IMG/VR virus record: IMGVR_UViG_3300045988_155334
Reading direction: 5' to 3' (one strand)
Length of the DNA: 64,000 bases
DNA from: a virus
Lineage: Duplodnaviria > Heunggongvirae > Uroviricota > Caudoviricetes
The position numbers were made by a program, and so were the translations under genes. The notes under the pieces are model-generated. The model was given only the letters and a program-made list of their open reading frames with translations, was not told where the DNA came from and ran no database searches. Shown in pieces: positions 8,101 to 47,222 of this stretch (within the stretch, counting starts at the first letter, position 1; each line of letters begins with the position of its first letter).

Positions 8101-8513
8101 TGACCGAACATTTCGCGAGCGTGTTCGGCTGCTTCGGTCCGTTGCGCCTTTACATCTTCTGTTATAGCCTTCTTGCGTCGTTTTTTACCCTTTCGCGTAG
8201 TTGATTTGGCCTGCGGTTCCTGTAGAGCAACATCCTCCTGAACTACACGAGAAACGTCCCCTAAATTAAGCCGTTTCATTGCCTCAACAATAGGGTCCAC
8301 TGATGGCGCATTGGCCACAAAGTCTGGCCGGGAATTTTCGATTGTGCGATTTAATGCCGACACACTGCGAGAGACAGGATCAACAGTTGCAACGCGCCCC
8401 CCTTTCAAATCTTCAACAGCTTCCCGGATACCTGCAAGCTCTTCCAGCTCTTTTGCGCTGGCGGTTTCAACTGTCCTTATAACATCGTCAATGTTGGCGT
8501 TTTTTCTTTCCAT
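5121..8513 (-). CDS. sit: Sit: tape-measure-like injected protein with soluble lytic transglycosylase domain
   Basis: 1130-aa ORF; SLT motifs ...AIAATESGGNPYAKSQTGALGMFQF...AYNAG...; long low-complexity Gly/Lys/Ala-rich N-terminal half. Confidence 0.85.
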   Translation of the reverse strand: MERKNANIDDVIRTVETASAKELEELAGIREAVEDLKGGRVATVDPVSRSVSALNRTIENSRPDFVANAPSVDPIVEAMKRLNLGDVSRVVQEDVALQEPQAKSTTRKGKKRRKKAITEDVKAQRTEAAEHAREMFGQKGGAQKSQNQRDARGRFIGKSGSKAAAEDARAERAEKARRKEDDERLNAESGLLKKLSKVAEGIGNPSETRAVDALGYAVAGPLWAAGKELGGISKEVGGSLNGARKSIADVIRGNDDNSRRKGFFRRKSQNSADVVQVNTQKRTVQELQEQTSEIKEGNDKILSALDQIAKNTGKRKGGLLSKLFSLLGKGAGGVASLLMGRGMLKKAGALAFGALGAKKLVGMLRGGGKKTLAHEGGDLAARAAGKLGLKAVGKGALRAIPLVGTVAGGIYDAVTGWNDTEAQRRAFGLKSGQDPSFQQKAAYTLANVLDMGGLVSGISSAIGEVLKSLGFEDIGNMLQSFSTESIAQTIDSGITNLETYISNLGDTISTKFDDYTAKIGDAVSAWFSDTSNKLLEKLDAIKDFFTVDNLKQVFSDAIDSAIDFIKNPGKHIKEAAGNIWDGVKNLPGKALDAAVDAVKNTPAAMIVSKIPNPIGEANAKEITPELKAPVNSHQETSDSKTESDAKQSNIATRVINAALDTAKDSNKTVKQTANQIINANAVETGNSALQKIDKAIGQNSSSSSSLNTTGTRNDIQKAADTYNNGNLDVKVGSLGAEGKANLDKLAPYFAELENKYGLPEGTLYAIAATESGGNPYAKSQTGALGMFQFTGIAREETGLAEGESFDPVKSAEAAALLMSKYLKQANGDLNEAITAYNAGFGTINKWKKGTGDLSKENREYAIKVNTHRARYLGGEIYTPGAGAQGGAQYGVRGPLPDNAVIDQSTGLAFTPGDSPFEKGGLVDKIGNAVGVNDLVNKFMNGRGMRREVVQGTLEERARGKGTATAAGNVYVDTPMPVEEARPVANNSSYFDHLGAQMGIDGLFDKLRNSPGMRKNNAPEPASTSQVTTAANDLQQPTGRMQIDGQVISDLGGSGAKPTMQLADNTVSLDGETKRLFAQMTSLLARIEEHTKDSAKGQGTVVKVSTPQPGVMRTVPLSIDDPLMNDYARVD

Positions 8514-8594
8514 GATCTTATCGCCTACCGTTTCGGTTTAAGTTTTTCTTCCAGTTTCTCCAACAGGAAAAACGCATAGGATTCAGTAAGCCTT

Positions 8595-9476
8595 TCAGCG
8601 TCCTGAATCGGTATACCCCCATACAAAACCAGGTTGGACACTAAGGTCTGATAGCTTTTCAATCCCCACCTGTGGAATGAAGTCGGTAGCCCGAAAGGGC
8701 ACCCACAGACGGGTATATGCACCCTCTGTGGACTCCTTTTTATCCTGATTTGGGCATTTATGCGGCGGGAGACGAAGACGCATTTCACCTTTATCGATGT
8801 AGCACGGTAAACCATGTTCGAGCTTTTCATGAGCCAGTCGGATGTGTGCCGCCAGCTTCATAAATTCAGTATCAATGGCCATCCGTTTAATCGTTTCATA
8901 ACGACGCTCAGCCTGATCTTCACGAGTACCGCTAACATCGTTATAAAGCTCACACTGATAAGCGAATTCCCAAAAACGCAAATCAACGATCGCTTCTTTG
9001 AATTCCGCGTCGTCTTCAGGTGGCAATGCTGCACGGCGCATCTCCAGCATTTCCATTGCCCAACCATCAAGCGGCACGATACGCCATTGATAAGGTACTC
9101 CCTCGACAGACACCTCAATATCGTCAATGAAAGGTTCCACTTCCAGGACCTGGATATCTTCAGCCAGAGCATTCATATCGCAATCGTAATAATGCTCTTT
9201 ACCGCAATGTTTACAGGTGTAGGTGAATGTCTCGACCGGTGTTTCACGGGAGCCGGTAAATATCCACCATAACGCGGTAATCCGGTCCTGCGCCGTCCAT
9301 GTCAGGGGATCATGTTTCGCAGGTTCAGCCAGCAAGGCTTTTAAATACGCCGTTGTCTGTTGTTCTTGTTCCTCCGGTGTTATCGAGTTGAAACGCATCG
9401 CATCAGCAATATTTGGCTGACGGAACTGGATCAATTCAGTTGGCCGCGATGGTAGCGGGAAAAGAGGTAAAAGCAT
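8595..9476 (-). CDS. Putative morphogenetic protein (PmgB-like by position)
   Basis: 293-aa ORF in the sit operon; contains CxxC pair. Confidence 0.4.
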   Translation of the reverse strand: MLLPLFPLPSRPTELIQFRQPNIADAMRFNSITPEEQEQQTTAYLKALLAEPAKHDPLTWTAQDRITALWWIFTGSRETPVETFTYTCKHCGKEHYYDCDMNALAEDIQVLEVEPFIDDIEVSVEGVPYQWRIVPLDGWAMEMLEMRRAALPPEDDAEFKEAIVDLRFWEFAYQCELYNDVSGTREDQAERRYETIKRMAIDTEFMKLAAHIRLAHEKLEHGLPCYIDKGEMRLRLPPHKCPNQDKKESTEGAYTRLWVPFRATDFIPQVGIEKLSDLSVQPGFVWGYTDSGR

Positions 9477-41777: not shown

Positions 41778-42356
41778 GTGTTGCGCTTTACTGAGCAAGA
41801 GTATCTGGCTTTCAGTAAGCGCAGGAAGAAAGGATGGGCTAAGCCAAAGCCCAAAAAGGATCCGTTCTTATCACTTGCCCCGGTAAAAGAAGTTTCGCCA
41901 CATGCGAAGGCGCTTGCAGCACTGGCAAAAAATCCTGATCTGCGAGTAGGAAATTGCGAGCACTACGAACAGGTTTTCATTTTTGATTACTTCGAGCGCA
42001 ATTACCCTGAAATTTATGAGCTGTTGCATGCAACGCCTAACGGAGGGAAGCGTTCAAAAGCAACCGCCGGGAAAATGAAGGCTGAAGGGCAGAAAAAAGG
42101 TTATCCGGACATGAGTCTCGATAAAGCATGCGGTATTTATCACGGCATGCGAATTGAGCTTAAAGAACCAAATGGTAAAGCCCCGACGAAAGAGCAGATT
42201 GCCTGGATGCGCAGGCTTAGAGAGGAAGGTTACTACGTTGTTCTTGCGTATGGTGCAGAACAAGCGATTACCGCCATCCTGGAATACATAAGCCTTAAAA
42301 AGGGTGAGGCTATTGAGCATGTATTGAACGGCGATAAGTGGTTGTATGCTGCTTAA
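41778..42356 (+). CDS. VRR-NUC domain nuclease (PD-(D/E)xK fold)
   Basis: 192 aa; GYPDMSL...ELKEPNGKAPTKEQIAWMRRLREEGYYVVLAYG pattern typical of VRR-NUC. Confidence 0.55.
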   Translation: MLRFTEQEYLAFSKRRKKGWAKPKPKKDPFLSLAPVKEVSPHAKALAALAKNPDLRVGNCEHYEQVFIFDYFERNYPEIYELLHATPNGGKRSKATAGKMKAEGQKKGYPDMSLDKACGIYHGMRIELKEPNGKAPTKEQIAWMRRLREEGYYVVLAYGAEQAITAILEYISLKKGEAIEHVLNGDKWLYAA

Positions 42357-42389
42357 AATAATAAATTAATTAGTGCATATTGTCTCTTT

Positions 42390-42578
42390 ATGGTAGTGCA
42401 CATCAACATCGGGAGAGTAATCGTGTCATCCAAGGTTAATTATGAGTCGCTGGCATCGGTCATGCCGCGTAATGAACAGGAAACAGATGCTGTAGTGGAC
42501 CCTGTAATCGCTGAAATGAATGCTCGCCTGGAGGCTGAATTTGCAGCTGAGAATGAACATACCACCCAGGGCGACTAG
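42390..42578 (+). CDS. Small acidic protein
   Basis: 62-aa ORF; 3' end overlaps the next gene by 26 nt. Confidence 0.3.
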   Translation: MVVHINIGRVIVSSKVNYESLASVMPRNEQETDAVVDPVIAEMNARLEAEFAAENEHTTQGD

Positions 42579-43182
42579 GACTGTTTTTTGTGTCGGTAGC
42601 GGTCCGTCACTCACTCGTGAGGACTGTGCTGCTATAGAAAAAACTGGCTGTTCAATCATCGCGGTTAACAATTCCTGGCAGATGTTCGATGACATTTATG
42701 CCTTATACGCCGGTGATTTGTCATGGTGGAAGCAATACGGTTCCACCATACCGGGAGGGAGGTTCCGCAAAGTGACAGCCAACCTGGCGGCGGCGAAATC
42801 ATTTTCGTTGGAGTACAGGCGATATTGTGGACCGGCGGAAGGGGTAAATAGCGGCGCGCAGGCTATCAGTCTGGCGGCTGAATCAGGGGCTGAAGTAGTT
42901 GTATTAGTCGGCTATGACTGTTCTCTGCAAAACGGCCTTCATTGGCATGGCGCGCATCCTCAAGCACTACGGAATCCAACGCAGGTGTCTATTTCAAAAT
43001 GGCAACAGCAGTTCCTGGATACCCGCAAAAAACACGCAGATTTACATATTTTGAATGCAAGTAGGAGCAGTGCAATTCAATGTTTCCCAAGAATAAATTT
43101 AGAGGCAGTGATCGCGTTATTATCGTCGGCAGTGGCCCAAGCGCCGCAAACTTTGTTGCGCCGCGCGGAGTGCCGATTATAG
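42553..43182 (+). CDS. Glycosyltransferase-like protein, paralog 1 (GxGPS Rossmann-like motif)
   Basis: ORF 42520-43182; likely ATG 42553; VFCVGSGPSLTRE...IIAVNNSW motif; paralogous to 43080-43706. Confidence 0.45.
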   Translation: MNIPPRATRTVFCVGSGPSLTREDCAAIEKTGCSIIAVNNSWQMFDDIYALYAGDLSWWKQYGSTIPGGRFRKVTANLAAAKSFSLEYRRYCGPAEGVNSGAQAISLAAESGAEVVVLVGYDCSLQNGLHWHGAHPQALRNPTQVSISKWQQQFLDTRKKHADLHILNASRSSAIQCFPRINLEAVIALLSSAVAQAPQTLLRRAECRL

Positions 43183-43706
43183 CGGTCAATGGGGCCATCG
43201 ACTGGCTTAACCGCGCTTCTTATTTTTTCACACTTGATCCATCGCCAGACAATATGCGGCGCGTTGGTCGTGGCCGCCGTCGCCGTGGTGTTTGTTATTG
43301 CATGGCACTACCCGATGTTAAAGAACGTGAAGTCATAGATGGCGTTCTGTGCTTCCGTCGTGTGGCTGAACGCGGCACGGAGCCAAAAAATACGAATTCT
43401 CCCGAGTGGTGGGCATGGCGCTGGTCCGCACATTTCGGCCTTTGCGAAGATGAGAATGAAATTGCCAGCGGCAATAGTGCATATGGTGCTCTGAACCTGG
43501 CCTTCCATATCGGATTCAAACATGTAGCCCTGGTGGGCGTTGATGCTACACAAGAACCACGCGTTCACTCCGGCGGCACGCCAAAAAATCTAAGTCACCT
43601 GCCTTTGTTATTCCAGTCTGCGCGTGAACAGATTGACGTTGTTTCATGCGGGAAAATGGGAGGTATTCCGCAGATGACTCTTAAAGAATGGCTGAAGAAT
43701 ACATGA
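43080..43706 (+). CDS. Glycosyltransferase-like protein, paralog 2, overlapping paralog 1 by 103 nt
   Basis: 208 aa; [13 protein letters not shown]...[10 protein letters not shown]; the start must lie inside the preceding ORF to keep the motif. Confidence 0.45.
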
Positions 43707-44380
43707 TGGCACCCACAATTTATCACCGTATCGACGGTACCAAATACAGGAATGTCTGGGTTGTTGGTGATCTGCATGGTTGCTACACCAGACTGATGTC
43801 CGAACTCCATCGTGTGGATTTTGACCCGGCGCAGGATTTACTGATATCGGTCGGCGACCTTATCGATCGCGGTACTGAAAATGTCGAATGTCTGGAACTA
43901 TTGCAGATGCCCTGGTTCAGGGCAGTGATGGGGAACCATGAGCGGTTGATGCTCGATGCGTTAAGTCCTGATGGCAACGTGAATAACTGGCTAATGAATG
44001 GTGGACAATGGTTCTTCATGTTGGACACTGATCAGGAAATATTAGCCAGGGCGCTGGTGGAGCTGGTAAGACGTCTGCCCTATATCATTGAGTTGAACAC
44101 CGGGCAAGAAACTATCGTTATAGCCCATGCCGACTATCCGGATAATGAATATCAATTCGGTAAGGAGGTGCCGCTTTTCAACGTTGTCTGGGCACGCGAG
44201 CGTATCAGTGATTCGATGGATGATATTGGTGGCGAAATTTCGGGCGCAGATCGTTTTATCTTTGGTCACACTCCGGTGAAAAGCCCGAAGACATTCTGGA
44301 ATCAGCATTATATCGACACTGGTGCCGTATTTTGCGGAAACCTGACATTGATGAAAGTGAAAGGTGATGGTGCAGCATGA
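43688..44380 (+). CDS. ppp: Ser/Thr protein phosphatase (calcineurin-like metallophosphatase)
   Basis: 230 aa; GDLHGCY, GDLIDRG, GNHE metallophosphatase motifs. Confidence 0.85.
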
Positions 44381-45078
44381 AGATTGCTTTAGTTCTTCGC
44401 TCTGGTGGTGACTATAACGCTTCCGATGTGCAGTGGCTGGTTAATCAACTGCCAAAAGGCTATGAAATTATTTGCCTGACAGACCTGAAGCGTTTACATG
44501 TACCTGGCGTCAAAGTTATCCCATTGATCAACCAGTGGCAAAAGTGCCGTGGCTGGTGGGCGAAAATCGAGTTGTTCCGACCGGATATAACCGATGATCT
44601 GTTCTATCTGGATTTGGACACGGTTATTGCCGGTGATATACGCCCAATCCTTGAGAACCCACCAACCAGTTTCACCATGCTTAGGGATTTTTACCATCCA
44701 CAATATCGTGGTAGCGGTGCCCTGTGGATACCAAATAGTGTAAAAGCGCATATCTGGAGTGCATTCTGGCAAGATCCGGAAGGTTGGATTGCTCGTTGTG
44801 TTACTACTGAATGCTGGGGTGATCAGGGGTTTTTGCGGAAGGTTATGGGTGATGATACACCAGCATTTCAGGATCTGTATCCAGGATGGTTTGTAAGTTA
44901 CAAGGCCGATGTTGTGGAACCTGGTTCAAAATATGCGAGCGCGCGTTACTCCAGGGGGAATGGGACATTACCAAAGGACTGCCGAATAATCTTTTTCCAC
45001 GGCAAACCGCGGCCTCGCGAAGTGTCAGAGGATTGGCTTCCCCTCATTAGCTCGTTTTTTGAGCGAGAATCAGAATAA
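44377..45078 (+). CDS. Putative GT-A-like glycosyltransferase with DxD motif
   Basis: 233 aa; FYLDLDTVI DxD-type motif; start overlaps the ppp stop. Confidence 0.4.
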
Positions 45079-45079
45079 T

Positions 45080-45096
45080 ATTGCTCTAATAATTCC
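45080..45096 (+). promoter_or_regulatory. C1 operator-like site (left copy of an inverted pair)
   Basis: ATTGCTCTAATAATTCC, 14/17 match. Confidence 0.45.
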
Positions 45097-45104
45097 ATAT
45101 TTTT

Positions 45105-45134
45105 AAAACGTGATGTACACTCATCACGTTTTTT
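45105..45134. terminator. Intrinsic terminator bracketed by inverted C1 operator-like sites
   Basis: aaaacgtgatg-tacact-catcacgtttttt. Confidence 0.65.
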
Positions 45135-45145
45135 ATTAGAGCAAT
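45129..45145 (-). promoter_or_regulatory. C1 operator-like site (right, inverted copy)
   Basis: Reverse complement reads ATTGCTCTAATAAAAAA, 14/17 match. Confidence 0.45.
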
Positions 45146-46715: not shown

Positions 46716-47222
46716 TTGAGTATTTTCAATAAACACGCACACCAGGAACGTCCGTACATCGTCATAGTAGATATTGATGGGACGATATCAGAGGCAACGG
46801 AAGACAGGCTGCATTTGCTTCCACCACCTGGCAAAGGTGCATTAACAGAGCACTGGAACGAGTTTAACCTTGCCTGTGACACCGATACTCCCATCACTCC
46901 AGTTATTGATATGGTGCGCCAGTTATTTAACGTTTACACGGTCTGGTTTGTAACCGGGCGCTGTGAGATCGCAAGGGATAAAACACGAGCCTGGCTGCGG
47001 AAGTACGTAACAAACGGGGCTGAGCCTTTGCTATCTATGCGTCCTGCCACCGATGACAGAAATGACGGCCCAGCAAAGATTGATCTCCTTAAGAAAATTG
47101 GTCTAAGTAAAATCGCGTTCGCGCTGGAAGATAAGATTGAAGTGGCGCGTGTTTTCAGAAGTCACGGTGTACTTACGTTAATGGTCAGGGAGTATGAAAA
47201 CGCGCTTCTTCATCAACAATAA
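46716..47222 (+). CDS. HAD-superfamily phosphatase-like protein
   Basis: 168 aa; motif I VDIDGTI; fold resembles polynucleotide 3'-phosphatase or nucleotidase. Confidence 0.55.
   Translation: MSIFNKHAHQERPYIVIVDIDGTISEATEDRLHLLPPPGKGALTEHWNEFNLACDTDTPITPVIDMVRQLFNVYTVWFVTGRCEIARDKTRAWLRKYVTNGAEPLLSMRPATDDRNDGPAKIDLLKKIGLSKIAFALEDKIEVARVFRSHGVLTLMVREYENALLHQQ

Follow-up and report, generated by a model that had tools for sequence, protein, structure and literature searches.

The four overlapping genes considered here, pmgO, pmgP, ppp and pmgQ, lie in a 64,000-nucleotide (nt) stretch of Caudoviricetes DNA (IMG/VR record IMGVR_UViG_3300045988_155334), which we refer to as a whole as 'the window'. 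Their closest described counterparts are a number of sugar transferases, a phage protein phosphatase and the virion glycosylation systems of mycobacteriophages. Maf proteins (PF01973, Maf_flag10/MptE-like; e.g. 5MU5) are O-glycosyltransferases that attach nonulosonic acids to flagellin. They consist of three domains (N-terminal Rossmann-like, central and C-terminal helical) in a 632-residue chain. PmgO (209 or 220 amino acids (aa), according to the start chosen) and PmgP (208 aa) are, in contrast, phage-borne proteins of ~200 aa that comprise the central, core domain only, and they are encoded outside any flagellar glycosylation island; PmgO is set apart further by invariant C...C and HWHGxH residues of its own. 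CstI and CstII of Campylobacter jejuni are alpha-2,3(/2,8)-sialyltransferases (family GT42). PmgO has no sequence-level match to any PDB chain, even with its family profile, and the host, to our knowledge, lacks sialic acid activated by cytidine monophosphate (CMP) unless it is a K1-type strain. PmgQ resembles the GT8 enzymes (e.g. glycogenin, LgtC, GlyE and AgtA, the Skp1 alpha-galactosyltransferase), but at 233 aa is shorter than most, and has a VLRSGG N-terminus and an FHGxPRP C-terminal motif specific to its family. Ppp is like the lambda phosphatase (ninI/orf221; 1G5B) throughout its length and in the metal-binding motifs GDLHG, GDLIDRG and GNHE. The lambda gene lies in a nin-type early region, whereas ppp lies between transferase genes in an operon under C1 and late control. 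Finally, Freeman and colleagues are said to have described, in 2023, the glycosylation of mycobacteriophage virions by phage-encoded glycosyltransferases. Those genes, which methyltransferases often accompany, map within or close to arrays of structural genes, and plaques form without them; in these respects they resemble the P1 genes. The enzyme families differ, as do the hosts (actinobacterial versus Gram-negative), and no glycan has been reported on P1 virions.

The ~3-kb stretch around the cluster has 98.2% nt identity to bacteriophage P1 (AF234172 / NC_005856, 79372-82372), and 97-98% identity to P7, SJ46, RCS47 and further phage-plasmids of the P1 type. The window is a phage of this type, and the four open reading frames (ORFs) are the annotated P1 genes of the same names. 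A sequence-only reading of the window had taken them for two glycosyltransferase-like paralogues, a Ser/Thr metallophosphatase and a DxD-motif transferase, forming a glycosylation/dephosphorylation module that might act on DNA, tRNA, or a host or phage protein. All four ORFs are on the + strand, and each gene junction overlaps:

42520-43182, + strand: pmgO, minimal Maf/CstII-like (PF01973-fold) predicted glycosyltransferase; the alternative ATG at 42553 is the start used in the sequence-only reading
43080-43706, + strand: pmgP, distant pmgO paralogue with the same fold; phrog_2111 (3e-131); -1 frame relative to pmgO
43688-44380, + strand: ppp, lambda-type Mn-dependent Ser/Thr/Tyr protein phosphatase (PPP-family metallophosphoesterase; Pfam Metallophos, 1G5B)
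44377-45078, + strand: pmgQ, predicted retaining glycosyltransferase, GT8-like and of GT-A fold; DLD motif invariant

In the P1 annotation of 2004 the pmg genes were labelled just 'putative morphogenetic function'. RefSeq and PHROGs now label PmgO 'alpha-2,3-sialyltransferase', PmgQ 'glycosyltransferase' and Ppp 'metallophosphoesterase / NinI-like phosphatase'. A misspelling in the 2004 record, 'norphogenetic protein', has been copied into hundreds of NCBI and UniRef entries for homologues of PmgO and PmgP, the names of which therefore rest on no functional evidence. The cluster probably serves phage-encoded glycosylation of phage components. Our more specific proposal, which we hold tentatively, is that pmgO, pmgP and pmgQ form an accessory, late-expressed lytic cassette whose products put sugars on a protein, probably one of the virion.

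Folds and families of PmgO, PmgP and PmgQ

The two ~205-aa proteins had been likened to CstII/DUF115-type sugar transferases on account of a common GxGPS motif. Both points stand. In each family, 40 homologues keep without variation the GxGPS loop, which follows strand 1, together with an (N/T)SG ... G-x-D motif, and both proteins have the CstII/DUF115 (PF01973, Maf) fold; that is, the Rossmann-like fold of the Maf central domain, CstII and MptE. Searches of PDB sequences with PmgO, singly and as a family profile, gave chance matches only, and a fold search was therefore needed. The best structural match was a Maf transferase, with 161 residues aligned versus 127 for hydroxymethyldihydropterin pyrophosphokinase (HPPK), an outcome that supports the transferase reading. 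In Pfam, PF01973 scored 23.4 bits against PmgO and 20.9 bits against PmgP, both under the gathering threshold of 34.6, with only the C-terminal motif aligned; for some homologues of PmgO and PmgP a PF01973 hit is precomputed. A fold search of BFVD returned uncharacterised viral relatives only, and NCBIfam and PADLOC had nothing for PmgO, PmgP or PmgQ. The PmgO family is nonetheless large: at E <= 1e-3 it counts 6712 cluster representatives (50% identity), 396 of them at <= 1e-30. Downstream of the GxD strand there are invariant histidines: His130, His132 and His135 in PmgO, and His173 in PmgP. The three in PmgO belong to a set of family-specific invariants absent from PmgP (C13, C123 and the HWHGxH motif with H130, H132 and H135; 209-aa numbering), and these Cys and His residues could form a metal site or hold a catalytic base.

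The term 'paralogues' holds for PmgO and PmgP at the level of profiles, and hardly shows in pairwise comparison. BLASTP aligns only their N-terminal 36 residues (14 identities, E 0.003), while hhalign joins the two family profiles over 156 columns (97.3% probability, E 2.7e-11), and each protein matches the other's PHROG. PmgO and PmgP are paralogous, then, but only distantly.

The DxD motif noticed in PmgQ is D79-L80-D81, invariant in 45 homologues, and its assignment as a transferase is upheld: PmgQ has a GT-A fold of GT8-like character. The family profile matches AgtA (1.1e-7), glycogenin (~1e-4) and GlyE (1.8e-4), while PmgQ alone reaches only E 0.08 and has no Pfam match at all, Glyco_transf_8 included; it is best called GT8-like. 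Matches of the PmgQ profile to polyubiquitin were rejected as an artefact of summed sub-threshold repeats.

Neighbours and fusions outside the P1-like phages

Our survey outside the P1-like phages covered 118 loci: 38 of the PmgO family (prophage and metagenome) and 80 viral ones retrieved through the PmgQ family. A first scan of viral contigs with the PmgO profile gave near-identical P1-like loci only, and was redone in other collections, distant relatives first. In what follows, O, P and Q denote members of the three families, and L and P numbers individual loci and proteins. Phages otherwise unrelated also have the trio: L003, an HK97-like siphophage contig, carries O, a methyltransferase, P and Q in that order, and a lambdoid prophage of Citrobacter rodentium (L005) has O, P and Q. 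The 35 prophage loci come from Enterobacterales and Burkholderiales; in 19 of them a ~290-aa protein, here termed X, comes after O, and in 14 of these an S-adenosylmethionine (SAM) methyltransferase comes next. Protein X gives weak signals of GT9 heptosyltransferases (Pfam PF01075, 1.5e-4; WaaF, 1PSW, 0.0021; TibC, 0.27). It corresponds to phrog_6804 (e.g. L091, 7545-8414) and has a conserved, Cys/His-rich C-terminus (C259, C261, H266 and C268), which we take to be reminiscent of the iron-finger of TibC, an autotransporter heptosyltransferase. Among environmental viral loci with a callable Q (n = 61), O or P is present in 24, an FkbM methyltransferase in 21 and a sulfotransferase in 3.

Some of these neighbours also occur as single polypeptides. 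P0373, a natural O+P fusion of 376 aa, has an O domain (2e-62) and a P domain (2e-92); because such fusions exist, PmgO and PmgP are suggested to act together. O is fused to the GT9-like protein X in L088 (7001-8497), P0361 and P0479, to a TylF-type sugar O-methyltransferase in P0487, and to immunoglobulin (Ig)-like Big_1/Big_13 domains in P0374; tandem O-O proteins occur too. The enzymes among these partners and fusions build or tailor glycans, and do not belong to nucleotide metabolism, and the balance therefore tips to transferase chemistry.

O and Q genes are found chiefly in the company of virion genes. At L125, L162, L169 and L174-180 they separate the major capsid gene from connector or head-completion genes, and at L086 they stand between genes for head closure and neck proteins. 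They adjoin Mu-type baseplate genes at L101 and L107 and Ig-like proteins of fibre type at L112 and L116-120, and at L091 and similar loci they have lysis genes on one side and terminase on the other. A structural gene was identified no more than four genes away at 34 or more of the 61 Q loci, a lower bound since just 13 neighbour clusters were annotated. In L112 (7792-10308) and L116 (7550-10674), the Ig-like proteins that adjoin PmgO-family domains are of the Big_1/Big_13 kind found on fibres and decoration proteins. These Ig-like neighbours and fusion partners are candidate acceptors, or candidate anchors to the virion.

Ppp is, as had been proposed, a Ser/Thr metallophosphatase, and it is of lambda type. 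Its residues 11-229 align with 3-221 of the lambda phosphatase 1G5B (E 1.4e-94), and Pfam Metallophos matches at 1e-15 (59.1 bits; cut-off 21.5). It falls under the cut-offs of the NCBIfam PrpA and PrpB equivalogs, as expected of a phage orthologue. What finds no support is its membership in a joint glycosylation/dephosphorylation module. A Ppp homologue was found at none of the 38 PmgO-family loci and at none of the 80 viral loci retrieved through the PmgQ family, and the order O-P-ppp-Q was seen only in P1-like elements. In phage D6, conversely, O, P and Q are absent and ppp (89% nt identity) stands amid early genes of the ead/Ea22 type, and the lambda orthologue is located in the nin region (PMC10695390). 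With ppp missing beside O and Q elsewhere and standing alone in D6, it looks like an independently mobile passenger that inserted in the P1 lineage, not a conserved partner, and the 'module' like a juxtaposition.

The proposed glycosylation cassette and its rivals

The analysis shows which genes these are, how they overlap, which folds and families their products belong to, how they co-occur and fuse, and where they lie in other phages; what we infer is transferase, not kinase, chemistry for the cassette, the donor sugars, a protein acceptor, and cooperation between PmgO and PmgP. These two would be the stripped-down catalytic core of Maf/CstII-type transferases, probably working as a pair and possibly as a heterodimer, and would transfer an ulosonic or nonulosonic sugar, activated by CMP, to the Ser/Thr of a protein or to a glycan under construction. 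The sole such donor in Escherichia coli K-12 is CMP-Kdo (Kdo, 3-deoxy-D-manno-octulosonate). PmgQ would add a hexose from a sugar activated by uridine diphosphate (UDP), with retention of configuration, and a short glycan would thus be built on a cytoplasmic acceptor during virion assembly. The likeliest acceptor would be a virion protein that is flexible or exposed at the surface, for instance a component of the tail fibres. The cassette would be silenced in the lysogen by way of a C1 operator, and is not required for laboratory plaques. This operator and the late promoter upstream in P1 are consistent with such a role, and the chemistry has a precedent: a Maf enzyme O-glycosylates a protein in E. 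coli with Kdo from endogenous CMP-Kdo (PMC11339370; bioRxiv 10.1101/2020.06.03.131540).

A number of observations weigh against this proposal. The enzyme activities of PmgO, PmgP and PmgQ are predictions, and to argue from gene position is to find guilt by association. The P1 cassette itself does not adjoin the capsid gene, and the capsid proteins encoded beside O and Q genes have no Ser/Thr-rich C-terminal tail, which would be the sign of an acceptor. Late expression, moreover, is found in DNA modifiers such as Mu Mom. Single deletions of 24 P1 genes caused no defect in plaquing or anti-restriction (PMC9024508), and, according to a published table, pmgO, pmgP, ppp and pmgQ are among the 24 (PMC10695390); single deletion of pmgO, pmgP or pmgQ is thus without such a defect. 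Knock-down with dCas12a gave efficiencies of plating (EOP) of 1.1 for pmgO, 0.72 for pmgP, 1.2 for ppp and 1.4 for pmgQ, and dCas12a roadblocks are polar (PMC10695390), so that, with pmgO at 1.1, the whole O-P-ppp-Q block appears dispensable on E. coli BW25113. PmgO, PmgP and PmgQ are absent from the reported virion proteins (PMC9024508). A near-atomic cryo-electron microscopy (cryo-EM) study of the whole virion, from 2026, and a tail study mention neither glycans nor additional density for the capsid, sheath, tube, connector or baseplate; in the P1 cryo-EM the UpfB tripod and the fibres are not resolved. In the literature on pmgO, pmgP and pmgQ, hdmB and hdmD, and phage Maf/DUF115 proteins we found no functional study.

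As to the targets named in the sequence-only reading, gene context favours a phage protein of the virion, nothing points to tRNA, and DNA is unlikely, P1 DNA being routinely restricted, cloned and sequenced. Late glycosylation of the phage's DNA, or of a nucleotide precursor, so as to shield progeny DNA in the next host, would place the cassette with the late DNA modifiers, to which the Dar proteins of P1 also belong; we consider this idea very improbable. Ordinary restriction enzymes cut P1 DNA, P1 has been used as a cloning vector, and we know of no DNA glycosyltransferase with a Maf/GT42 or GT8 fold. DNA-binding and base-flipping domains are absent from the cassette proteins, their usual context is structural and not replication genes, and the deletions left anti-restriction behaviour unchanged (PMC9024508). 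Glycosylation might instead inactivate a host factor or defence protein in the cytoplasm during lytic growth, in the manner of bacterial GT-A toxins and effectors. This we think unlikely, for placement in structural modules and fusion to Ig-like domains of virion type point to virion proteins, and defence-related context was not seen at the surveyed loci.

A glycan of the host envelope is, to our minds, just as unlikely a target. Kdo and a hexose might be added, for example, to the core of lipopolysaccharide (LPS), the P1 receptor, or to another lipid-linked glycan, which could block superinfection or the loss of progeny on cell debris. Known receptor-converting glycosyltransferases act in lysogens, however, where this operon is repressed by C1, and new LPS would be slow to reach the surface relative to the lytic cycle. 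Membrane segments and signal peptides are not apparent in the proteins, although no formal test was applied, and an envelope target is hard to reconcile with the position of the genes in many phages, between those for capsid and connector. Less likely again is that PmgO and PmgP resemble MptE and thiamine-pyrophosphokinase in function, pyrophosphorylating a small molecule or nucleotide and, with the GT-A protein, Ppp and Pap (a phosphatase encoded nearby), rewiring a metabolite, possibly as a counter-defence. The structural comparison with HPPK described above goes the other way, and the proteins that recur beside the family, or in fusion with it, are glycosyltransferase-like or are methyl- and sulfotransferases of families that include sugar modifiers. 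Phosphatases do not co-occur with the family at the loci surveyed elsewhere, and PADLOC gave no matches of note.

The virion glycosylation proposal may be generalised, though we regard the general form as doubtful. PmgO and PmgP would belong to a large family, of thousands of clusters, of minimal Maf-derived transferases. Together with GT8-like, GT9-like, methyl- and sulfotransferase partners, these would O-glycosylate the virion proteins of Gram-negative phages in the cytoplasm from precursors of the host LPS core (CMP-Kdo, adenosine diphosphate (ADP)-heptose and UDP-hexose). If so, the particle would wear an LPS-like coat of sugar, and virion glycosylation would extend from actinobacteriophages to enterobacterial phages, P1 included. 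Were virions decorated in this way, P1 and many Enterobacterales prophages would carry an overlooked system of post-translational glycosylation, with possible consequences for host range, the stability of particles, recognition of therapeutic phages by the immune system, and glyco-engineering. A 200-aa protein transferase for Kdo or nonulosonate would also be a useful tool. The genes, their overlaps and the predicted enzyme classes were already public, and dispensability is published. What appears new within the searchable literature is that PmgO and PmgP pair up as minimal Maf-like enzymes, conserved and at times fused, with the look of an obligate couple; that in Gram-negative phages the virion genes are the habitual setting of the O and Q families, whose partners are GT9-like proteins and methyl- and sulfotransferases; and that ppp is a passenger.

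Operon layout, overlapping starts and nearby genes

According to the P1 record, the operon starts at pmgN. Before it lies the promoter PpmgN, guarded by the operator Oppp, and farther upstream the late promoter LPpmgL. These elements, and a terminator, map onto the window as follows:

41423-41441, + strand: LPpmgL, late promoter upstream of pmgL (P1 record 78495-78513, offset 37072)
42324-42350, + strand: PpmgN, predicted sigma-70 promoter (P1 annotation 79396-79422, mapped onto the window)
42363-42379, - strand: Oppp (Op83), C1 repressor operator, TATGCACTAATTAATTT (P1 annotation 79435-79451)
42390-42578, + strand: pmgN, small ORF and first gene of the operon; 62 aa from the ATG at 42390, 51 aa from 42423 in the P1 annotation
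45105-45132, + strand: likely intrinsic terminator closing the pmgN-pmgQ unit; 11-bp hairpin with a T-run after it (folding energy of the RNA -13.4 kcal/mol, z -5.7)

From its position, LPpmgL can supply read-through transcription of the cluster at late times; an operator scan located the neighbouring C1 operator, O26, where the P1 offset predicts, at 41456-41472. Oppp would silence the operon in the lysogen. It has four mismatches to the operator consensus, and was missed by the scan because this exceeds the limit of three. The terminator was picked up by folding and not by the consensus terminator scan, probably because the A/U extension of the stem uses up part of the T-run. It is flanked by oppositely oriented C1 operators, OpmgRa (45080-45096) and OpmgRb (45129-45145), and a single 66-bp stretch (45080-45145) thus holds both the terminator of the pmgN-pmgQ unit and the repressor-controlled promoter of the next unit, pmgR. 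The first gene, pmgN, overlaps the start of pmgO, and its product had no match in searches of family libraries. pmgN was essential in the dCas12a screen (EOP 1.4e-2) and non-essential by deletion (PMC10695390), a discrepancy that is not simple polarity, because the knock-downs of pmgO to pmgQ had no effect.

The start of pmgP 103 nt inside pmgO, as originally read, proves exact: the overlap runs from 43080 to 43182. A Shine-Dalgarno sequence, AGGAG, lies within pmgO at 43063-43067, 12 nt before the pmgP ATG, and the first 12 residues of PmgP are conserved among homologues with 100% query coverage. Farther on, pmgP and ppp overlap by 19 nt, and ppp and pmgQ share ATGA; translational coupling of the cluster genes is inferred from these overlaps. 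PmgO ends in a non-conserved tail of 18 residues with low predicted local distance difference test (pLDDT) scores, and this is the +1 reading of the DNA that encodes the conserved IIVGSGPSA of PmgP. Related phages overlap O and P as well, by 70 nt in a P1-like element of Salmonella (L122; ~72% protein identity) and, when an upstream ATG is used, by ~94 nt in the C. rodentium prophage. In the latter (8486-9130; P0232), the public call of the PmgP homologue starts at 8600 (176 aa) and loses the GxGPS loop; the ATG at 8510 brings the loop back and creates the overlap with the PmgO homologue. This start is clearly annotated too late, to judge by the motif, and such late starts look like a systematic mis-annotation caused by the overlap.

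A programmed -1 frameshift was also considered. The sequence A_AAT_TTA (43095-43101), read in the frame of pmgO, is a canonical X_XXY_YYZ slippery heptamer 15 nt past the start of the overlap, and a -1 slip there would yield an O-P fusion resembling the natural P0373. The heptamer is missing in the Salmonella element and in the C. rodentium prophage, and is probably due to chance; we rejected it.

Other genes of the window bear on the same themes. Some 6 kb upstream of the cluster, downstream of ban, dbn (35587-36585, + strand) encodes a 332-aa protein with a weak GT-B match (Glycos_transf_1, PF00534, E 1.5e-5, just below the cut-off) and an E-x7-E-like C-terminal motif, and is a putative fourth glycosyltransferase of the phage. 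PmgM (41778-42356) is like a VRR-NUC nuclease (Pfam, 3.3e-4) and matches phrog_5702, a Holliday-junction resolvase (4e-27). Pap (46716-47222) is a PNKP-type phosphatase of the haloacid dehalogenase (HAD) class (PF25109, 8e-12). Several of the 'morphogenetic' pmg labels are therefore clearly misnomers.

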